45,553 nucleotides of DNA, taken from contig PS015298.1 of the NCBI GenBank assembly GCA_048213135.1, positions 71,761 to 117,313 on the forward strand, given 5' to 3'. Source of the stretch: Reclinomonas americana ATCC 50394. Its lineage: Eukaryota. The translations under genes were made by a program, and so were the position numbers. Position 1 is the first letter of the stretch. Each line of letters starts with the position of its first letter. The notes under the pieces were generated by a model, which saw only the letters and a list, made by a program, of their open reading frames with translations, searched no databases and was not told where the DNA came from. Below are positions 2,429 through 45,553 of this stretch, one piece after another.

Positions 2429-13995
<11,567 letters not shown>

Positions 13996-18120: not shown

Positions 18121-21100
18121 TTATTGGTCTTGTTCGAGAGCGTAGTGTGCCGCAGCGCGTGTTAGCATTTTGACCTCGACCGCCTCCTTCGCCTCCCGTC
18201 GCTCGTCGTCGTCCACTGCCAGACCGTCCTGCGAAGAGCAAAGCGATGATGATTTTAGAGGAGAAGAGGATGAAAGAGAGGTAAGGCGACAACACGCACA
18301 ATGGTCAGCAGCAGCATGCCTGGTGACACGGCCACGTTCACGGTGCCGCACAACTCCACCAAGAGTGCGACGCGCTCCATGTCGGTCTCATTGTCTGCAG
18401 ATTGCAAGTTGTCAGCTGAGAGATGAGAGAGAGCGAGAAAAAAAGAGAGAACGGGCGACCGCACCCGATACGTCGAGATGACGCAGTGCCGGGCAGTTGT
18501 GCAGGTGACCGGCCTCCAGCGGCAGATTGAGACGGTTGCCCGACAGATCCAGTGTGTGCAGGCGCTCGAGGCGTACTTGCGAAAAGGCCTCTAGCGAAAC
18601 GAGTCTGTTGTTGGCGAGTACCAAGTGCTCGACGGTGCGGAACCCCTCGAGACCCGACACGGCGTCCACGTCGTTTCCACTCTGCGTGAGGCGATGAGGG
18701 GCTGAAGAGCAAAGCATGAAAATAGTGCTCTCCACGCAACGAATGACAGGCAGCGGATGCATGGCAACTGGAGGCCGTCCATGGAGGTCAGCACGTTGCG
18801 ACCGAGGTCCAGATGAGTCAGTGCGGGGAAGCCACTCGTGTCGAGCAGCTGGATCTTGTTTTCTGTGTCGCAGAAAAGCAGGGCGTGAGTGACGATGAAA
18901 AAGAACCATTGCGACGGCCACGAGAAGCGAAACTCGTCAGCAGCAGTGTCGTCAACTGCACGCAGTGCGAGAATCGACCGCGCAGCACACGCGCCGAGTT
19001 CTCCGACAGATCCACATACTGAATGGCCGGCGACGATAGCAGCCGAGCAAAGTTGCGCACAATATTCTTGCGCGCCACCAATGTGCGCAACCGCGGCAGT
19101 GCGGCAACCAGCACATCCACATCCGCAATGGCGTTGTAGGAGATGTCGACGTGCTGTAGGGTGGTGAAGCGGGTGGCTTCACTGCAGTCGAGCAGGCTCC
19201 GATTCTGGTGGTGTCGCGCCTGGTCAGCACGACATGCAATGGGCCTGCAACTTCTATTGCACGGACGCAACTGGCACATCCAGATGTGTGAAACCAAACG
19301 TCGTGCCGTCACGCGGCAGCGACTCCATGTTCCCCAGACCACTGGTGATTAGAGCGCGCGTGCTGTGCACTCCCTCCGGGTGGTCCTCCAACACGCACTG
19401 CTGCATGATGGGCAGCAGATCCTCCATGGTCTGGCCGGGCGCCGGGTCGGCCGCCACGTGCAGTCGCCACGAGCCGTCGGCATTCTCGTGGTACAGCTTG
19501 AACAGCAGCATGCCTGTGTGCGAGCCGGTGGAGCCAAAGTGCAGCCGATGCAGGACCTTGCCGTCGGGTCGGATCACGCGCACGCGTGCCGATTCGATGA
19601 AAGTGAAGGGCTGGGGAGGGCAAAAGGAATGGGAGAAGGGAGGGCAAAAGTGGGCAAAGGGGAAGAGGGCAGAGGGGACCAAGGAGGAAATGGAGTGCGA
19701 GGGCAAAGGGAGGCGATAAGCAAAGAGGGGAGTGGGATAACGGGGCGGCGGAATGAGAAGGCAAGGAGTTGGCAGGCAGAGTGGGTCACGGAGAAAAGAG
19801 CAACGGAGCAGATGATGAGGTTCGTGGCATTTGGGCGGCAGAATGAGAAGGCAAGGAGCAGTGTGCAGAGGAGGGCAGGTCAGAGAAACGGGGAGCGACT
19901 GTGAGGAACGTGGTATGAGAGCGGCAGAATGAGAAGGAAGAAGTTGTGGGATCAAATAGGTACAAGAGCAACGAGGAACAGACAGTAAGGTAAGGGTGGT
20001 GGAATGAGAAGGCAAGGAGCAGTGAAGAGGAGGGCAGCCATGGTGGGGTCAATAAAGAAAGAGCAACGAGCAGCTCACGGTGAGGTGCATGGTATAAGGG
20101 CGGCGGAATGAGAAGGCATGGAGCAGGTTGAATATGAGCGCAGACTCGGCAGGCAGGGGGTCAACAGAAAAGAGCAACGAGGAATAAACGGCGAGGTGCG
20201 TGGAATGAGGGCGGCGGAATGAGAAGGCAAGGAACAACGTGAAGAGGAGGGCAGACTTGGCAGGCATTATGGGTCAAGGGGGAAAGAGCAACGAGTAAAC
20301 GGTGAGGAGCGTGGTATGAGGGCGCCAGAATGGGAAGGTAAGAAGTTGTGGGATCAAATAGGTACAAGAGCAACGAGGAACAGACAGTGAGGTAACAGTG
20401 GCGGAATGAGAAGGCATGGGGCAGCGCGAAGATGTGAACAGGCATTGTGGGTCAAGGGGAATGAGCAAACGGTGAGGCGAGTGCAGGAACGATGAAGGCA
20501 GTGACTCGGGGCAGGGAAACATAAAGGCAACGAGCAAATGAACGGCTGCTTCTCCCCCCACACCGCACCGTGCCACTGAACGAATTGAGAATGAGAATAA
20601 TGGCAAACGTCTCCTCCGGCAGCTCTGCAAACGTCACCGTAATCGTCTCATCATCCTCCTCCCCGTCGCCCTCCTCCCCATCCTCGCCCTCAACACCACC
20701 GGTGCGCGAGTCGCCCGAGTGCTGAATGCCACCGAGTTTCGACTTGAGCTGGTTGAACCAGACCGCGTCCAGTGGCTCACCGCGACGATTGAAGGTGCAC
20801 GCGGAGGCGTCCAAGTCCAGCGGATCAATGCCCGGAACAGTGACCCAGCTGGTGCCAAAGTGCTGAAAAGGAAAAGGGGTTTGAGGCAGAGGGCGAAGGG
20901 CGAAGGGAGAACACAGTGCATGTGAAAGGGAGAAGAGAGATCAACACTCTCCTTCGTCCCTTCTGATCACGCTTTCCGCACTTACTCCCTCTCTGTCTCT
21001 CTCTTCTCTCTTCTCTCTCTCTCTGTGTGTGTGTGTGGATGTGTGTGTGTGTGAAAGGAAAAGGATACAGATAGGAAGAATGAATGAGACAAGAGCGCTC

Positions 21101-25883: not shown

Positions 25884-25942
25884 TATGGAGGACGGTGTGC
25901 GACAGACAATACAGTTCTTGTTTATGTGTGCAGAGTGGGGTT

Positions 25943-28900
25943 TTAAAGGTACTCCTCCTCGTCGTCCTGCCGTGCCATGATGGCATCCAGCTCTCTGCGC
26001 ACGACTCCACGCCAGGCCGCGTTCATGCGTGCCTTCGCCTCGTCCCAGCTGGAATCCAGCAGTGCAAGGTCCGTCACTCCCATCTCGTCGCTCAGCAGCC
26101 ACTCGACCAAGGTCTCGGCGATCTCGGGCTTCAAGTTCCTGTGCTTTGTGCACCAGACTGCGCGATACAGAGGCGCAACAGTGAATATGTGTGTGCCAAG
26201 ACAGACAAAAACAAACGAAAGCAGACAAACCATGGAATGCGTCGCGAACGGGTGTTGACGGCTGCAGCTGCAACTCCATTGGCACTGAGGCCTCGCTGGC
26301 CGAGTCGGGATCTCGGACGCGGCTAGGGCCTCGTACGCTGGCGGTTGGTACAGCCGGCACAGGTGCCGATGGCGCCGGCGCCGTCCGAGCAGCAGACGAC
26401 GCAAACATGAAGTTACCGGAGCCGAAGGGTGCGGAGGCGGCGGTGCTTGCGCTTCCAGCCGAACCGGCCGGGAGCCAGGAGCTGCCCGACGCGCGCACTG
26501 GAGTGGTCGGCGAGTGGGACGTCACCGAGGCCACATCGCTCTGCGGTGGCGTCACGGTGCCGTTGGCGCTCGAGTGCGACGGCGTGGATGCAGGTGATGC
26601 AAAGTTAAAGCTCGGGCGTGCCCAGGCACCAGCCATTCCGGCGGCACCCGCGCCACCAAATGGACTGGCAATCACTGGTGCCGGCACCGGCGGCTGCGCA
26701 AATACCGGTGCCGACGGCTGTTGCGCAAACATGGGAGCAGACGGCGGCGCCTGCTCCGACTGGCGACGACCACCGCGAGCGCTGAGGGGTGCAGCGGCCA
26801 TGTTCACTCGCGCACTCGGCAGTGACGCCTCCGAATCGGCGTCAGCGTCAAATTCGGCACCGCGGCGACTGACTGCCGAAGACGGTCGCTCACCCTCCGC
26901 CCCCTGATGGCGGCTGACTGCCGACGATGGTCGCTGTCGACGGGCACGCTTGCGAAGCTGGCCCTTCACCAAGGCCTCAGCAGCGGACAGTGCGTGCATC
27001 AGCGGCTCCAGAACGAGCACTTCCGCTCCCTGATCGCGGTACGAGTTCGGCCCAGTGTACGACACGGTGGGGTAGATGCTGGCGCGGGTGATGCCACTCT
27101 CCTTGGCGAACCTTTCCAGCGTCTTGTCCACCAAGTCACTCTCGAGAGCGCGGATGGCGTTCTTGTTTCGCAAGCGCGGGTCGACCAAGTCCATGCCGGC
27201 CAGAACCACCATCGGCTGCAGGCCCTGTTCGCCGAGAAGCTGGCCCAACTCGCGCAACGCCCACATCTTGTCCTCCTGGCCCAGCATGTTCACGTGGCAG
27301 CACAGAATGACGCCATGCACACGGTGAGCAACGCCGCCCTTCCACAACGTCGCTTTGTCCAGATCGTCGTCGAAGCGGAACCCGTCCGGCAGGGTGCCTC
27401 CCACCAGGGCGCTCGTCACGTCGTTCGAGTAGTTGGTGTTTGTCGGCCTTTCTGGTTCGCGGTACACGCCTTCGGCGTTGCCGGGTTTGCGGATTGCGTC
27501 CGAGTGGTAGCCCTGGTGTGTGTGCACACAGCAGTCAGGGGCATGCACCTCGAGCAGTGGGTCGCGCACGACAGCTCTCAACACTCACCCAGCAGTCAAT
27601 CAGGTTCAGATGGTCCGCCACGGCGTAGGTGACCTTTTTCTGCGTCACACCATCATCCGACGGGCAGCTCGGCGCGACCGAGAAGAAGCGGTTGTTCAGT
27701 GCGCTGGCCATGGTGTTGATGGTGGCACTCTTTGCGCCATTCTATCACACCAACACACATGGAAAAAATCAGCAACGACGAGCGTCGTGTGGTGGGTGGT
27801 CGCAGGCGTGCAACGCAACTCGGAGACCGACAAACAGAATGTTGTAGGCACCCACTTCAGCGGGGCAGTTGTGCTGGTACTCGTTGATGGTCGCCAGAAT
27901 AGTGTCACGCTCCGCCTCCAGGCTTTGTTGAGAGATGCGAGGTGCTGCGGTATACACAGGTGAGCGACGAAGATGCACATGATCAACGGTGGATGAGAAA
28001 CGCACCAGGGAGTGTGTAAAAATCGGTCTCGTCCGAGTACGAAGTCCGTGTGTTATCTGCACGAATGCCTTGCACGCGCAGCGTCACCAGTTCATTGGCC
28101 GGCAGCCCGCTCACCCAGTACTCGTTGATGCTCACGTCGGCTTCGCCCACAATCTTCCAATGCACTGTGGCAGAAGCCGTTCGACGTGAGTGCGACTGAA
28201 CGCTAAGTGGGTGTGCTGCGACACAATACCTCGCATTTTGCTGTCGGGCCCACGGTTTCGCACTTTGCGCTCAATGTGGATCCTGTCGAGGTTGAAGTCC
28301 AGCAGCGACCCGCTCGGCATCGAGAACTTGAGCATCAGCTCAGTCGATGTGCGGTTTCCAGTGGTCACCGAGGGGCTGTGAACAGTGGACGATGAGCAAC
28401 GAGCTCGACGACGACAACGAGGGCTCAAACAAACACACCATGCATTGCTGGTGACAGACGCCGGGCCAAACAACTTCTCGACCTGCTCACGCGAGTCGAC
28501 GAAGAATGTGTTGCGCTGCGAGGTGCCAAGCAGCTTGATGTCCTCACGCGCAGCGTCGTCGCGAGGGGCGTGCAGAGCGAACACCACAGTCGGGATCTTG
28601 GCGTCGTGCAGCGAGCAGTTGGCCTCCATCTTGGCAATCTGCGGGAATGGCAGTGCGCCTGCACGTGAAGTACTTGTTGTCAGATCGAGGAAAGCAACGA
28701 CGACAAAGCAGCTGCGCGCAAGGCAAGTGGACACCAACCTACAGTCACCAACACCACGAGGCTCTTCGGGTTTTGTCGCGCGCACGTGCCCAGGTGTTGC
28801 GCAGCGATCTTGATAGCGCTGGCCACACCGGCATTCTTGGTGGCCGCCACAGCCTCGTCGCCCTCCACATCCAGAGGCGGCTCGTTATAGTCCTCAGCGC

Positions 28901-29267
28901 GCGCCGCAAAGTCAAACAGTGGCTGGCGATCGTTGGTGAGCACTTGGAAGTTCACCGCCGGCGTGTGCTGGCCATACAGCACCACCGAGAAGTTGACAGA
29001 GCGCGGATCAGTAGGATCCAGACGCGAATGGCTCAACAGCATGCGCACGATGCTCTTGACGGTCAGCACCTCCCATGCCATCGGCAAGCACTGTACGTAG
29101 CGAGGAGCACACACAAGGAAATCGTCAGAGGCCAGCGAGAATGCAATCACAGAGGAGAGAGTGTTTGATGGGAAGCAGAACGCAACAAGGACGATGTTGG
29201 TGCTCTCGCTGAGTGGCGGGAGCACAATGCTCTGCAGGCGTTGATGTTCATCGCCGGCAATATCCAT
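25943..29267 (-). CDS. VWA - FN3 - IFI44-like P-loop GTPase (degenerate motifs) - low-complexity linker - small helical C-terminal domain; paralog A
   Basis: ATG 29267; VWA-like (FSVVLYG, VASAIKIA, KSLVVLVT); FN3-like (WKIVG...YWVSGLPANELVTLRVQGI...TSYSD...FYT); YNILFVGLR|NGAKSATINT, IDCW|G, LVGGTLPDGFRF, RVHGVIL, IYPTVSY, EVLVLEPLMHALSAAE; stop 25945-25943. Confidence 0.75.
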
Positions 29268-29919
29268 GGCAGTCAAAGTGGTTCTCTCTCCGCGGCAGAA
29301 GTGGAAATGTGTGGAAACAACCTGTCATCGACAACAGTGCCATGTCGGATCGCAAACATATCCGGCTGACGACTGCCGGCACCTGTTGTCCGCTGCGCGT
29401 CTCCCGGACACGTTGGCAGCCGCGGAGCTGGAGGGTGCCGCAGGCGAGGAAGATGAAGAGTGCGTACTTGCAACAAGCGCTAGCGATCATCGATTCTATA
29501 CGTGTTTTTGAAACAAAACCCGCTTGCAGCTCACGCGCACAGGCGCGCACGCACTGAGAGGAGGAGGGAAAGGGCAAGGAAGGGGATAGATGGTAGCGGG
29601 GCGCAGTCGCAGGGTTGACTTCTGCCGGGTCGCAACGATATCGTCAGCCGGGAATGCAATTGTTCGCGTCCTGTCGAAAAGATGGAAATGCACACGCGCA
29701 CTGCGCGTACTGCCCGGCAAACTGAGGACACGTGCTCTTCCCCCTCCCATCACTGCGTTGCCCATTGACGCAAGTGAGCACACCTTGCGACTCTTGGTGT
29801 ATTTGCATGTCCAGTCGTATTCGGATCAATTGCGAACCCGGCGTGTCCCGTCGCGCGGCACATTTCCTGTCACACAACTCGCTTTTTCTCTGTGTCTGCT
29901 GAGCACTTGCAACGCGAAC
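29268..29919. promoter_or_regulatory. Probable bidirectional promoter between the divergent GTPase paralogs
   Basis: 652 bp between divergent ATGs (29267 minus, 29920 plus); positional inference only, no motif assigned. Confidence 0.5.
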
Positions 29920-32900
29920 ATGGCTGCTCTCGAACCCGTTGTACCCGACTTCGTCGCCGCAGACGACCTTCGTGCACCGCCACCAGCGCCCCGGCTGTTG
30001 CCGGCGCCTCCTCTGGTCCTCGAGCTCACCGAGGCGGACCAGCTGCGACTGGCGGAGAAGTTCACTGGACCGGCATCGCAGACGGCTGATGTGGTGGTCG
30101 TTGCGTGCGATGTACAGAGAGAAGAAGGGATGAGGGATGGGGGGAGGGGAGAGCGTGAACGTTTACTTCGCTTGTCTTCTTGTCGGCTGTCCTACTTTGC
30201 TGTGTGTTCGTGGAGGAGCAAGATCGGTGAAGTAAGGAGTTGGAGTCAGGAGTCGTCTCTCTCTCTCTCTCTCTCTCTCTCCATCATGCTTCTCTTATTC
30301 TTCTTCTCCGCGCGTGTGTGTGTGTTTGTTGTTGTCAGATTGTCCTTCTGCTCCCTCAACACTGCGTGGAGTGCAGACACGCACCTCGTGATCCTTCTTC
30401 TCTCTCTCTGTAGGTGTGCGTGTTTGTGTGTGTTGTCAGAGTGACTTTGTCTGTTTTTGACCGCGTTGCCACTTGTACGCCTTTCATCTTATTGCTTGTG
30501 TGCACGTCGTCAGAGTGACATCTCCCCCGTCTCTTCCCCTNNNNNNNNNNNNNNNNNNNNGTCACTCTATCGCGCCTTTCTTCTCATCCATGTTGTCAGA
30601 GCTTGTCGTGTTGTCTGCTGCTTGCTCACTACTTCATCCCCACTCTTCCAGGCCTTTCCGAACGGCGCCAACACCAACCTCAAGCTGACCCAGCACTTGT
30701 ACCGCGTCCTCGCTACATGCCTCAACCTCGATGAATCGAATCGCGCCGGCACTGCGCTTGCCGTCGTGTACTACGGCAGCGAGTTCCCGGATGGCGCTCG
30801 GGTGGAGACTGAGCTGACTTCGAACTCACGGTATCACCTGGAGCGTGCTGCCGGTTGCGTCTTGATCAGCGAAGGACTTGTTCATCATCTTCGGTGTGTC
30901 TCACCTTGTGCGATTCACAGTCATGGAGAAGAACCCGGCTGCCACCTCCACGCACATTCACAAGGCCATTGACGTCAGCCACAATCACATGTTGGGCCAG
31001 GAGCCTGGTCGCCGCAAATTTGTTGTGCTGGTGGTCAATGGTACGCTGTTCGACGCACTTCCTCCTTTCTACGCTGCGTGGTGATTGTGCTGCTTACATC
31101 GCATCGCTCTGCCGTGAGCAGGTGACATCCAGGACGCATCGGCTGCTGAGCGCCACGCTTCCAACCTTCACACTGCCAGAGTGACGACTGTCGCTTTTGT
31201 CCTCGGTGCTGATGCATGCCGCAGTGCTGCAGTGGAGGAGGCACTGCGTCCAGTGATCTCCGCCGACTGCTTGTTCCGCGCAGAGCGACTCGAGGAGATC
31301 GAGTTCCTCTTTGGCAAGACCTCCACCGTCGTTCGCCCGGTGCCACAGATCGAGGCACACAATCGCACCTCGTCCAAGCTGGAGCTGCGCTTCAAGATGA
31401 GCTCCGATCAGAGCGCGGCTGGAGCCGTGAAGTCTTTTGAGCTGGAGCGCCGCATTCGCGGAAGTCCCATGGAGGTGTCATCGGCATCAGCTGCTGCTGG
31501 TGAGTGTTTCCTAGAGAGTTGGATACTCTCTTGCGTTTGCGAGATACTGACCGGAATTTCCTCTTCAGATGACGCTTCTGGTTCTCAGGCCCGTGTGGGA
31601 GAACGTTGCGTCTGTACGGTAGTGGTTCTTTGCCTCTTGTCTTTTGCTCACTGCATGACTACTTGAACAGCCAAGTGGGTGGAGTTTGGAAGTGTGGCAG
31701 CCAACATCAACGAGATGCACATTGAGCACCTGGCACCTGACGAGCTGCTGGTGCTGCGGGCATGCGCCGTCTTTGAGGACGGCACACAGTCGCCTTGGTC
31801 GCCAGTGACAGAGTACCGCACGCTGTCCAGTTGCGTTCGCTAGAGAGGTTTTGCTTCATTGATGTTCGCAGTTGTGAACTCATGCATAACTAATATGCAG
31901 GGCCTCGCCTGCGCGCTGAGGACTTGCCTGACTACCGGCAGGCCTTGGTGGCGCGCGTTGAGAACTTTGCCCGCGACCGCCATGCCATTGTGCCGTACAA
32001 TGTGCTCCTTTTCGGAAACATGGGAGCGGGCAAGTCATCCACCGTCATCACCACGATGAGTGCCATGAAGGGCAAGTTCGTGGCGGCCGCGACGGCACGC
32101 AAGCAAAACGGCACTGTCACGTTCACCAACTCTGACTATTCGGTGGTCGACGACTGTGTGTATCTGCATGATGTGTGGGTGCGTGCATTCGCTTGTGCTG
32201 TCTCGGTGATTGACAACCACTGCTATTGTATTCACACTTAGCTTGTGGTTGCAGGGCTACGACGCCAGGATGTACACCAAGGAAGTGACAGAAGACCTTA
32301 TCAATGGTACTCTCCCAGACGGGTTCGACTGCCGCCACAAGGGCAAACCTGCAGCGGCTGCAAGTGGCAGTCATGTGCGCGGCAGCGGTCGTCTTGCGCA
32401 CGCCAATTCGGAGCCGGAGGACGATGTGCTCGAGAGCTGCTTGGCAACGCACATGCACTCAGCCATGGTCGTCTTTGAGGCTGACTCGTTGGACAATGGC
32501 CTTAAGCGCGCGGACCTGAAGGAGATGCTGGCGCTGCTCACTCGCCACGGTTAGCACGTTGTTTCTTTCATGATTTTTCATCCGTTTCTCGCTCACCTTC
32601 TGTTATACACAGACTTGCAGTTTGTCGTTCTGCTGAGCAAGCTCGACATCATTGACCCGCGCCTGGCAGGCCACAACGCCATTCTGGCTCTGGACAGTGA
32701 CATTGTCGCCAAGGCCATGGAGGACTTTGCCGAGCGCGTCGGCATCCCTCTCGGCTGCGTGTACCCAGTTGTCAACTTCAGTGGCCCCAACGCGTATCCC
32801 GATCTCGGCAGCGAGGTGCTTGTACTCGAGGCGCTGCTCGGTGCACTGGAGTTGGCGGACGGCTACTGCGTCACTCAGCGCCGGGCCGCTGCGGCCCAGC

Positions 32901-33618
32901 TGGTTCACGGCCACGTTGGAGATGCCGACATGCAGTTTGCATTGAACACCGTGCGCAGCAGAGGCGTTGATGTGCCCGCCGCGTTGGTGCAGGCTGCACA
33001 GCAGACAGACGACTTGCGAGCGCTGGTGAATCACCTGGTGCGCGAGTGCGGCTACGACGCGGCCATGAAGGATGTGTTCGATGTGCCCAAGGCGGACGAG
33101 CAGGAGAGGGCGGTGGTGGCTGCGCCCATGCCAGCAGCGTCTGCTCCGTACCAGCCCAACGTTGCTGCCGGTGGTGGGTGGAACGCCAGGCCTTTTGCCG
33201 CACCGGTACCGGCACCGTCGTATGTGCCGCCGTATGCCGGCGGCTACTCGGCTCCAGTCAAGCCTGGCAACACGACTCCATTGTCGGTGCCGAATTTGGA
33301 TGACGTCGACGGTTTCGCGCCTGAGAGCGATGTCGGCGGCTGGTTGGGCAGTTGCGTTTTGCGATAGCATCACCATGTCACTCCCATGCAACAGATTGCT
33401 CACTTTTGTCTTGTCCACCAGCTCTTTGCGACCGGAACAGGCACTGGAACCGGGATAGTGTCGACGAACTGGTGGAGTGGCTGCTTGAGAGGGACATCTC
33501 CTCGCTGCAGGCACTGTACCGGCAATGGTCGACGGTAATGAGCAACGGCCCTACCGTGGATCGTTCCGTGTGCCAGAGCATTTACGGAGAGCTGGACGCC
33601 ATCATCACCATGTCGTGA
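29920..33618 (+). CDS. VWA - FN3 - IFI44-like P-loop GTPase (intact motifs) - linker - small helical C-terminal domain; paralog B
   Basis: ATG 29920; VWA-like (LAVVYYG, THIHKAID, KFVVLVVNG, VTTVAFVLG); FN3-like (KWVEFG...IEHLAPDELLVLRACAV...SPWS...YRT); G1 GNMGAGKSS (32014-32040), G3 DVW|G, LINGTLPDGF, MHSAMVVFEA, G4 LLSKLD, GIPLGCVYPVVNF, EVLVLEALLGALELAD - motif order as in IFI44/IFI44L. Confidence 0.8.
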
Positions 33619-41854: not shown

Positions 41855-44800
41855 TTAGCAAGTATTCCACGTCGCTGCGCGCCGGAAGCAGTCAGAAACG
41901 TGATAGAAACTCGCAACTGCTCCCCCCACAAAAACGCAAACGAAGAACCTCAAGCGTTTGCCAAGAGCTGGCGGCAGCGGAGGCAGTGGTGAACCGGCGG
42001 CTGTTGCCACAAAGCGTCGCAACAGCTGAACAGCCTCCGACGCAATATCGTGCAGTGCATTGGTTCGCGCGGCGTTCCACTTGGCGTCGGGGGAGCCGGG
42101 TTCGAGAATGACGGAGCGGAACTGCAGGCGGTCCATCACGTCGACGGCGTTTTCGGCCACGACAAGAGTGGAGGTGTGGGACTGCAACAAGGAAAAGAGT
42201 GGAGAGAGGGTGGGGAAGGGGAAGGGTGAGGGAGAAAGGTGTGTGCGTGTTTGTACGTGCGAGGATGCAGCACCTTGGTTTCCTCGGGACCGAGGGTCAG
42301 TGCCTGCGACCAGAAGGGAGAACAGTGAGATGGGACTCACGGGAACAGGCACCGTTGCACGCACCGATGAGCACTGATCTAGGGCGTTTTCAAAGGCGGC
42401 CGAGTTGGTGTAGCAGCTCGCCAGGTGGTTGTGCAGCTGAATCAAGGCCGGTATCCGTTGCTCGACGATAGCAGCGTCGGTTGAGTCGGCGAGGTGGCGC
42501 AGGTGGGCAAGGGACTGGGTGAAGAAGGGGAAAGGGCAAGGGGTAAGGGCAGAGGAAGCAGCGAGAAAAAGAATGGAGAGGGAAAGAGATGAAAAGGGAG
42601 GGGAAACGAGGGGACAAGAGAGAGAGAGAAGCAGTATGGAGGAAAAGGATGAAAAGGCAGCAAAGGAAGAGAGAAGGACATGAGGAAGAAAGAGCAAGTT
42701 GAGAGAAAGAAGGGAGAATGGAGATAAGAGTGTGAAGAAGTCAGTAGGGGGGAAGGGAGGGCAAGGAAGAGACGAAGAATGAGAGAAAATGTAATAATAG
42801 CCAGGGAGACAAGGGCAACGGAGAAGCAGAGAGAGAGGAGAAAGGGGCACACGAGGTAAAAAGAGCGCATTCTCACCTTGTTGAACAAATCCAATGCCTC
42901 AAGAACTTGTTTCCTTCGCAGATGGTCGGCGCCACGACTGCCCGCAGAAAATGTCAGTCTGAAAGAAGCACAACACATGCCCGAGACGAAGAAGAGTGCA
43001 CCTTTGAAGCTCCTTGGCGCGTGACAAAATGTCGGCGTCACTCTGCGCATCACCAACGTGTCATCATTAAGCAACCACCTCAGCGAGACCCTCCACGACA
43101 ACCAACCTGCGTCACATCCACTGAGGCCTCGGCGGGCGGAATCTGACTCCTCATCCGTTCCACCAGCTCGCGAGCCTCCAGCCGCTGTCCGCGCTTGTAG
43201 AGGTTGGCGGCCAGGTTTTCGACGGCCGCCAGTGTGTCGGGGTGCGTGGGACCCAGCAGGCGTTCCCGACCGAGAAGTGACTCGCGGAACAACGCATCGG
43301 CCTCGTCACACTTGCCAATGTATGACAGACACGTGGCGAGGTGCGACATGGAGGCGAGGCTGTCGAGGTGCAGCGGACCGAGCACCTGTCTCCGCATCTC
43401 GCAACACCGGCGAAGCAAGTCGGCGGCCTGGTGCAACCGTTCCTGGCGGAACAGGCAGATGCCGAGGGTGCTGAGAGTGGCCAGCGTGTCGCTGTGCGCC
43501 TCGCCAAGCGCCTTCTGCTGCATGGCCAGACATTCGAGAGCCATCTTCTCCTGCTCCTTGCGCCGCCCCTGCTTGCCGAGGCACACACTGAGGTTGAAGA
43601 GTGAGCGCAGGGTGTCGGGATGCTTCTCGCCGAGAGAGCGAGTCTGCAGATCGAGACACTCGCGCGTCAGGCGCTCTTGCAGCTCACGATCGCCCAGTTC
43701 GCCAACACAAGGCTGTATACATAAAAACATCGAATGAGTGACCACAGCCGTAAAAAGTCAACCACCCTGCGCAGGAGGAAGAATTGCTTTCTCCCCACCA
43801 AGGTCTCTGCCTCCTTCCATCATCAGTAGAAAGACATAAAAGAGAGAGAGAGAGAAAATGACAGAGAAAGAGAAAGAGAGAGCGAGAGGCTGACAACAAC
43901 ACTCATTTCTTTCTACACTTGCACGCGGCACGCAACTCCCAAATTAGTCATCGTGGTCAGCGTGCCGGGATGGTAGTTGCCGAGCACCTCTCTCCTCGCC
44001 TGCAGACATCGCCGTAATAGGCGCTCCTCACGCACCAACAAGCCGGCCTGGCCCCAACAGTACGCCTCCTGGTGCAGCGCAAGCAGCGAGTCCTCTGTCT
44101 CGCGACGCGTCGATGCACTCTCCTCATCGTCGACACCCCACAGTTCCATGTGGTGCACTTGATGCCAGGCACGCGCCGCGTGCTCCCAGTCCCTCCGTAA
44201 CTGCTGCACGCGAGCCACACACTTCAGGCGCCACACACGCTCTGCGCCCTCCGCCTCGCCCGCCTTGCCGTCGCGATGATCGATGCGCGCCAGCACTCGA
44301 TTGCAGCCGTTCACCAAGTCAAAGGCACACGTGGCCACCGTGCCCGTGTCCACCAACGTCGCCAGCTCGAGGAGACCCTTCAGCGTCAACAACGGCGTGT
44401 ACTGGCCCGCTTGTGCTGACCACAGTCCGTCGTCCTCACACAGCGCCTGCCACAGCAGGCCCATGGGCGTCAGTAGACTCTGCGCGGCCTCCAGTTGGCG
44501 ATTCCGGTCGCGACCACCCAGCGAGCCGACCAGCGCGCACATGAGACGCATGAGTGAGCGACGAGTGAGGGCGTACGGCTTGCCCTTGCGCCAGGCCCGC
44601 AGCCACTCCACAGCCAGCGGGTGCGCGCGGTAGTGCAAGGAGGACTTGCCGGGGCGCGGTGGCAACAGCAGCACGTGCTCAATCACATTGCCGCCACTCT
44701 GCGCATCGGCGCGCAACATGCCTGTGGCCACCAGCGACTCGAGAGCAACTTGGAAGGGTCCGTCGATGCGATGCCAGGTGCCGCTGTCCAATTCCAGCGT

Positions 44801-44996
44801 CGTTGGCGTCGCCGCAATGTCACTGCCGACATCAACTGAAGATGCCGACGATGTGTCGACTTGCAGGCCACTGCTGTGGCCGCCGCCGCTGCTGGCCGCC
44901 GAGATTGTGCTCATGGCCGGTGATGAGGGTGTCATTTCGACGTCGGCCGGCAGGTGGTACGCCACGACGGCTTGCTTGCGGCGGAGCATTTCGGAG
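41855..44996 (-). CDS. TPR-repeat protein (kinesin-light-chain/TPR_12-type repeats) preceded by a winged-helix-like segment; 5' part lies outside the window
   Basis: Repeats RREVLGNYHPGTLTTMTNLG, LGEKHPDTLRSLFNL, LGEAHSDTLATLSTL, LGPLHLDSLASMSHL, LGPTHPDTLAAVENL; acceptor at 44999-44997 preceded by a CT-rich intron running to the window end. 3' exon structure and stop are uncertain. Confidence 0.8.
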
Positions 44997-45364
44997 CTGC
45001 GGCGGGTAGGGGAAGGGGGAAAAAGGGGAAGGGGGTGACGGGGAAGGGGGTGAGGGGGTGAGGGAAGGGGGAAGGGAGGAAGGGGGGAGGGTGGAGGGAC
45101 GAGAAGTGAGGGAAGGGGGATGAGAAGACGAAGGGGAAGGGAATGGCAAGGGATAGCCAAGGGAAAGGGGTGAAAGGGGCAGGGAATGAGGAAGGAGAAG
45201 AGAAACGGAATGGAAGTGAGAGAAGGAAAGGGAGGCGAGGTGGAACGAGAAAGAAATAGGGGCGAGTAGGGAGATGAGATAAGGGCAAAAGAGAAGTGAC
45301 TGCAAAGTTGCGGAAGAAGCAGAGTCGACAGAAAATGCGAAACCACTGGACGTGAATGGCACAG

Positions 45365-45401
<37 letters not shown>

Positions 45402-45553
45402 GAGAGAGAGAGAGAGAGAGAAGAAAGAAGAGAGAGAGAGAGAAGAAGTAGGTAAGGAAGAGAGAGAGAGAGAGAGAAGAAGAAGAAGAACGAACGAAGA
45501 ATAGAGACGAAGAAGAGAGAATAATAGTAGAACGAACGAAAGGAAGGAAGGAA

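Follow-up and report, generated by a model that had tools for sequence, protein, structure and literature searches.

A candidate pseudoGTPase encoded head to head with a canonical paralog in Reclinomonas americana

Introduction

When a GTPase gene with an altered P-loop stands beside an intact paralog, is the altered copy decaying, is it an atypical but active nucleotide-binding protein, or has it become a pseudoGTPase? This question is raised by two genes, here called A and B, in a stretch of 45,553 nucleotides from Reclinomonas americana ATCC 50394 (assembly GCA_048213135.1, contig PS015298.1, positions 71,761 to 117,313), which is referred to below as the window and from whose first letter all positions are counted. 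A and B are divergently transcribed paralogs, arranged head to head with their start codons 652 bp apart (ATG of A at 29267 on the minus strand, ATG of B at 29920 on the plus strand). An earlier sequence-only reading of this DNA had described the head-to-head pair, which was taken there for IFI44-like proteins, of which one is an intact GTPase and the other is degenerate in G1 and G4. Based on the G-domain motifs, comparison with relatives and an examination of alternative splice forms, we lean slightly toward A being a pseudoGTPase candidate, that is, a maintained copy with a remodelled nucleotide pocket that would act by protein contacts. The finding is a prediction made at the level of sequence.

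Nucleotide-binding motifs of the two paralogs

Predicted protein B carries the motifs of a TRAFAC-class G domain, namely a G1 of the form GxxxxGK[ST] (GNMGAGKS), the G2 Thr, a G3 of the form DxxG (DVWG) and a G4 (SKLD); with all nucleotide-binding motifs kept, B is presumably a working GTPase. In contrast, the G1 of A reads GLRNGAKS and departs from GxxxxGK[ST], because the Gly that immediately precedes the P-loop Lys has become Ala, and its G4 reads AGMD, in which Asp alone is retained; the G2 Thr and a G3 (DCWG) are present. In the gene model, the exon of A that ends at 27820 reads ...YNILFVGLR and the exon that starts at 27741 reads NGAKSATINT...IDCW. The G1, G3 and G4 readings agree with those given in the sequence-only reading, and the contrast that it drew between an intact B and an A degenerate in G1 and G4 is borne out, in that the relatives of the pair are invariant at the deviant P-loop Gly of A and no splice alternative rescues the motif. 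Gly is found directly before the P-loop Lys in 11 of the 11 relatives that cover G1 (G-K-[ST]), together with a Gly three residues earlier, and the G4 Lys is kept by 17 of 19 relatives, the G4 Asp by all 19. A further departure is an insertion of 22 residues in the switch II region of A, which neither B nor any of the 12 relatives covering the region shares, and which is without a usable in-frame intron; the family-profile match to A breaks in two at this insertion. The Gly-to-Ala exchange before the P-loop Lys, the loss of [TS]K in G4 and the switch II insertion could together amount to a remodelled pocket, and the binding of guanine nucleotide by A may be weak or absent. PMC10731463 (citing Stiegler and Boggon 2020) defines pseudoGTPases by non-conservative changes of key residues within G motifs that are conserved in other respects, and A has such changes at both G1 and G4.

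The closest comparison for the P-loop of A is RhoA, whose Gly17 we take to stand immediately before the P-loop Lys, so that the G17A exchange would be alike to the one seen in A. RhoA G17A can bind neither GDP nor GTP, according to PMC3460580, although it differs from A in being an engineered mutant of a Ras-superfamily protein. From the predicted sequence of A and by analogy with this mutant, a true loss of nucleotide binding in A stands at about even odds.

Paralogy and gene models

Sequence comparison places the paralogy of A and B far beyond chance. The two proteins are identical at 247 of 779 aligned positions (32%), and BLASTP of single exons gave an alignment of 70 aa at 50% identity (E 1e-24) and another of 50 aa at 32% (E 1e-5). 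In tblastn with 19 family proteins, matches within the window occurred at the A and B loci only. A maximum-likelihood (ML) tree of 13 rows, comprising A, B and the 11 phmmer matches that span the entire G domain (eight partial matches were excluded; 222 of 303 columns were used), joined A and B as sisters with support of 96/91. The two genes are paralogs of long standing, specific to their lineage, within a small protist family that has no name. In each protein, a VWA-like region, an FN3-like region and the G domain are followed by a low-complexity linker that leads to a small C-terminal domain. The linker of A, rich in Ala, Pro and Ser, holds a 27-nt tandem repeat of 2.3 copies (26688-26748), and that of B is shorter. 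The C-terminal domains of A and B fall in no known family, and hhalign against the HTH_17, KHA and P0011 tails of relatives gave probabilities below 1%.

Shared introns accompany this homology. The intron that splits G3 between Trp and Gly, noted earlier as shared, lies at the same position and in phase 0 in both genes, and four more introns agree in position and phase, at VTVG/VVNG, in the middle of the FN3-like region, at its end and before the C-terminal domain. A further intron had been proposed to be shared at the first VWA strand; both genes have a candidate near that point, but the positions differ, since intron 1 of B follows ...VVVVACD and the nearest candidate in A (29150-29091, 60 nt, in frame and possibly coding) lies about nine codons later.

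The gene models, which were built from stop-free frames, GT-AG boundaries, the mutual homology of A and B and comparison with relatives, are predicted and homology-based (Table 1). All 16 modelled introns, eight in each gene, have GT-AG ends. In A, the in-frame introns 29150-29091 and 28438-28376 may be coding instead. Intron 1 of B (540 nt as assembled, 30112-30651) contains a 20-N assembly gap at 30541-30560, so that its true length and content may differ from those given. An in-frame ATG at 29590 lies 110 codons upstream of the modelled start of B; nothing in A corresponds to these additional residues, and a start there would shrink the start-to-start gap to 322 bp. The splice sites have an unusual flavour: acceptors are CAG in 15 of the 16 introns, including all those of B, intron lengths are mostly 60-81 nt, and the donor hexamer GTTGCG recurs in four introns (starts 27819, 30854, 31830 and 33351). 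A and B probably share a promoter region. An inverted repeat of 16 nt, 88% complementary, also lies between the start codons (29357-29372 and 29641-29656, 268 nt apart).

Table 1. Predicted features of genes A and B, in window coordinates
Feature	Position	Strand	Description
Gene A	25943..29267	-	ATG 29267, stop at 25943; 9 predicted exons, ~922 aa
Gene A exons 1-5	29267-29151, 29090-28739, 28658-28439, 28375-28230, 28164-28006	-	
Gene A exons 6-9	27944-27820, 27741-27589, 27512-26231, 26157-25943	-	
VWA-like region of A	29198-28657	-	without MIDAS residues
G1 of A	27727..27828	-	GLR 27828-27820, intron 27819-27742, NGAKS 27741-27727; Ala at invariant Gly before Lys
A-specific intron inside P-loop codons	27742..27819	-	78 nt, GT...AG, in-frame stops; absent from B
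G3 of A	27510..27597	-	DCW|G, split by phase-0 intron 27588-27513, common with B
Insertion in A	27441..27506	-	22 residues right after G3, switch II region
G4 of A	27189..27200	-	AGMD; [TS]K gone, Asp retained
C-terminal domain of A	25946..26155	-	70 aa, single exon, homologous to that of B
Region between start codons	29268..29919		652 bp, putative shared divergent promoter
Gene B	29920..33618	+	ATG 29920, stop at 33618; 9 predicted exons, ~852 aa
Gene B exons 1-5	29920-30111, 30652-30853, 30921-31040, 31122-31499, 31671-31829	+	
Gene B exons 6-9	31901-32178, 32255-32549, 32613-33350, 33422-33618	+	
VWA-like region of B	30088-31123	+	without MIDAS residues
G1 of B	32014..32037	+	GNMGAGKS, canonical, one exon
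G3 of B	32170..32257	+	DVW|G, split by phase-0 intron 32179-32254
G4 of B	32636..32647	+	SKLD
C-terminal domain of B	33424..33615	+	64 aa, single exon

Alternative explanations for gene A

Several points weigh against a pseudoGTPase role for A. A still has the Lys-Ser of the P-loop, Thr in G2, DxxG in G3, Asp in G4 and the His that is conserved in the family, and a pocket that had long been dead would be expected to lose those residues, so A may still bind nucleotide. G4 varies in two relatives that have normal P-loops (TNVD and GRTD), and only 11 relatives cover G1. The family was retrieved with an exon of A itself, and the profile scores beyond G3 consequently favour A. A metagenome scan for orthologs of A, made with its exon, gave 595 pattern matches and no relatives. 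The G1 junction of A is predicted, and its acceptor (...GTGTGATAG, -5.3 bits with a leave-one-out matrix) is both the weakest among the 16 introns and the sole TAG. Finally, co-expression of A and B and contact between their products are proposed by analogy with other GTPase pairs.

The first of these points also support the strongest competing explanation, by which A is an atypical but active nucleotide-binding protein with altered kinetics or nucleotide preference that works independently of B, the layout of the locus being a trace of inverted duplication. In addition to the retained residues and the variable G4 of the relatives, it could draw on the finding that the domain of A is as constrained as that of B (see below), and on the observation that an altered G4/G5 can switch a relative of GTPases to ATP, for which SpoIVA is cited in PMC10731463. 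Against it stand the Gly before the P-loop Lys, invariant in the relatives and needed for nucleotide binding in RhoA if the equivalence assumed above holds, and the switch II insertion, which adds to the remodelling. We regard this explanation as possible but unlikely.

A second explanation, by which A would be a pseudogene that is not expressed or was inactivated recently, its P-loop "intron" being a disruptive insertion that is not removed, bears on whether the gene is maintained. The 78-nt stretch would bring in-frame stops into the reading frame if retained, its acceptor is the poorest in the set, and B has no intron at that position. However, its donor (GTTGCG, +4.1 bits with a leave-one-out matrix) is the hexamer of three introns of B, its length is typical, and the five splice positions common with B are intact. 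The other exons of A are open, so that the long intact frame pointed out in the sequence-only reading extends over about 922 codons, where 26.6 stops would be expected from composition, with no sign of decay. A and B have G+C contents at third codon positions of 0.744 and 0.730 (introns, 0.54 and 0.50), respectively, the codon usage of the two genes is correlated at 0.93, and the terminal branch of A in the ML tree is not lengthened (0.77, versus 0.96 for B). With a profile made from the family but excluding the two genes, A scored 159 bits and B 146 bits, a comparison that is biased towards A by the use of its exon in retrieval. Over the segment from G1 to G3, which was not used for retrieval, the scores were 37.8 bits for A and 53.6 bits for B, but with the P-loop octamer masked by X they became 26.2 and 24.1 bits. 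Masking thus removes the gap, which means that the score deficit of A sits wholly in the P-loop octamer. At the level of sequence conservation, the rest of the G domain of A is as conserved as that of B. A is likely to be a maintained gene with an altered pocket, and its being a pseudogene is quite improbable.

The intron inside the P-loop codons was proposed in the sequence-only reading to run from 27819 to 27742; it starts with GT and ends with AG, and the exon translations join as GLR|NGAKS. That reading had named splicing that restores GxxxxGKS in A as one of the results that would contradict it, and no such splice was found. GK[ST] is encoded nowhere in the three minus-strand frames of 25900-29400, and although 21 GT-AG pairs near the G1 of A preserve the frame, none of them yields GxxxxGK[ST]. 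Since no alternative gives a canonical P-loop, A would be non-canonical whatever the exact junction. The idea that the junction is mis-modelled, so that the real mRNA uses another donor-acceptor pair and GLRNGAKS does not exist as such, could appeal to the weak acceptor and the 20 other pairs, but it is the least probable of the explanations considered because only 27819/27742 aligns with B without gaps over YNILFVGLRNGAKSA and YNVLLFGNMGAGKSS, and the others either keep NGAKS (2) or delete Lys-Ser (18). No similar copy of the intron was found elsewhere in the window, and it is therefore not an obvious repeated introner.

Protein family and fold

The family of A and B was retrieved by phmmer with a 205-aa piece of the largest conserved exon of A against 1.84 billion representatives, which gave 19 matches at E <= 0.001, the best with an E value of 1.1e-11 and 30% identity. 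The family is rare and unnamed, and its architecture runs from VWA through an FN3-like stretch and a G domain of the TRAFAC type to a C-terminal domain that varies. In a Pfam search of the 19 relatives at E <= 0.01, in which some matches lie below the curated cut-offs, VWA was found in five, an HTH_17 tail in four, a KHA tail in two and a double zinc ribbon tail in one. In the full-length VWA members, the VWA is followed by the FN3-like stretch and then by the G domain, and a search with profile A1 gave three further members that have both VWA and HTH_17. The members include a Physarum polycephalum transcript (EukProt) and an MMETSP transcript, and the others lie on contigs of 1-4.5 kb; their source names are "hypothetical protein" or generic terms only. 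The C-terminal domain appears to be swapped among members, being HTH_17 in P0004, P0008, P0012 and P0019-P0022, KHA in P0007 and P0017 and a double zinc ribbon in P0002, and in A and B it is a different small domain again, of about 65-70 aa. The HTH_17 tail, of a bacterial or phage type, is odd on a eukaryotic (Physarum) member.

Other searches returned little. A word-seeded protein search with the G1 exon of B gave no match, one with profile A1 gave only seven close relatives of P0006, and one with the G domain of P0011 gave only P0011 itself. The best PDB sequence match to profile A1 had an E value of 0.086. Pfam gave sub-threshold P-loop matches on the G1 exon of B only among the exons of A and B, and NCBIfam and PADLOC gave weak P-loop matches only. 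A metagenome scan with an exon of B gave 199 pattern matches and no relatives, and a scan of viral contigs with P0006 gave three matches and no relatives.

Pfam VWA had no match on the window exons, and the VWA homology of the N-termini of A and B rests on sequence alignment with nine VWA-bearing relatives. Most of these nine have the residues of the metal ion-dependent adhesion site (MIDAS), namely DxSxS, the Thr of GGT(N) and the Asp of TD(G/D), which are missing from both A and B.

The fold of the G domain was assessed on a structure model of the relative P0006 (predicted local distance difference test, pLDDT, 77; predicted template modelling score, pTM, 0.79), in which an ordinary G-domain fold is predicted. 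Foldseek with this model gave YsxC/EngB, Toc34, IRGB10/Irgb6, GIMAP2/5/7 and septins at E values of 2.4e-6 to 1e-4, and VIA-align gave Z scores of 13-15 to Arf/Sar, EngB and Toc33/34, with no discrimination among these.

Relation to IFI44

Among interferon-stimulated genes, IFI44 and IFI44L are prominent, and the biochemistry of their G domain is little understood. The label "IFI44-like" given in the sequence-only reading rests on likeness by protein-language-model features; a TLDc domain was not found by Pfam, nor was a sequence match to a named IFI44 in three word-seeded searches. The features of P0006 fall in IFI44-like clusters (0.98; 222 of 256 features), with 16 of the 30 listed matches in that set, and those of the A exon fall in an IFI44-like cluster at 0.84, rank 7. 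The motifs of IFI44L would agree with this likeness. No TLDc was found by Pfam in any of the 15 exon-bearing frames, and the N-termini of A and B align with the VWA of the relatives. No protein named IFI44 was returned by the three word-seeded searches, and the phmmer library carries no names. As described in PMC11682996, IFI44L consists of TLDc and MMR_HSR1. The likeness thus concerns the G domain, for which IFI44-like clusters are the best named matches by these features; in contrast to the TLDc N-terminus of those proteins, A and B have VWA-like and FN3-like regions, and interferon induction is not applicable to a protist family. "IFI44-like" is accordingly a lead and not a demonstrated membership. 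No description of a VWA domain combined with an IFI44-like GTPase, and no mention of IFI44 in protists, was found in the open-access literature searched.

Possible relation between A and B

If A is a pseudoGTPase, it would work through protein contacts and not by catalysis, and its most plausible partner could be B, by analogy through the face of the G domain that dimerising GTPases use. Three systems offer precedents, and structures from each are among the fold matches of P0006. In the mouse immunity-related GTPases (IRGs), members with an atypical P-loop (GMS) control the nucleotide state of conventional GKS members, according to PMC2532785. A and B resemble these in being paralogous G proteins of which one has an atypical P-loop, but the GMS members replace the P-loop Lys, which is present in A, where the preceding Gly is replaced. 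The IRGs also belong to another family with another architecture, and A and B, which are known from sequence, are likened to them by analogy. In the second system, GIMAP7 promotes hydrolysis by GIMAP2, which cannot hydrolyse alone, and the G domains are activated by dimerisation (PMC8201404); GIMAP2, GIMAP5 and GIMAP7 are all among the fold matches. In contrast to A, with its altered P-loop, GIMAP2 binds GTP with a normal one. Third, after gene duplication in septins, GTPase features were lost repeatedly from one member of a G-interface pair, and the proposed class I septin pseudoGTPases have substitutions in G1, G3 and G4, as given in PMC10731463. The likeness would lie in a pseudoGTPase within a duplicated pair, and the difference lies in that septins form filaments and have another domain context, and in that A keeps G3.

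A divergent pair with a short common upstream region would, by analogy, fit co-regulation. That A regulates B within a co-expressed heteromer, as the sequence-only reading proposed and as is suggested by the 652-bp divergent arrangement together with the IRG, GIMAP and septin analogies, is nevertheless doubtful, and the fuller proposal, also drawn by analogy, that A, free of nucleotide, would join B at the G interface and gate its GTP cycle, the two genes forming a hard-wired divergent unit, is at least as doubtful.

Other features of the window

The DNA of the window is eukaryotic and nuclear, contains N gaps and has a G+C content of about 58%. A large, multi-exon gene for a Brr2/SNRNP200-like helicase lies at 4874-13357 on the plus strand (DEAD, Helicase_C, SNRNP200 winged helix-turn-helix and Sec63 domains; N gap at 10033-10707). 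Also present are an open reading frame (ORF) with leucine-rich repeats at 18415-19348 on the minus strand, a TerD-domain ORF at 20455-20940 on the minus strand (E 8.6e-10), a Borealin-like ORF and a TPR_10/TPR_12 ORF at 43083-45553 on the minus strand, which runs past the window end. The TerD family is mostly bacterial. Neither NACHT nor NB-ARC was found in the window ORFs scanned, and the window has no Rfam match and no tRNA.

Implications

Pairs of degenerate and canonical GTPase paralogs are a known theme, of which A and B would be a variant in a rare unnamed protist family. If the proposed gating of B by A is true, regulator-effector logic like that of the GMS and GKS members of the IRGs or of the GIMAPs would have arisen independently in this family, and the G domain of the family would be the nearest unicellular look-alike of animal IFI44. 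Should the family prove to be IFI44-like, with that G domain in another architecture (VWA, FN3, G domain), it may offer an uncomplicated natural setting in which to study the function of the G domain and its possible dependence on dimerisation. The family includes, in A and B, a naturally occurring canonical copy together with one whose P-loop is altered.

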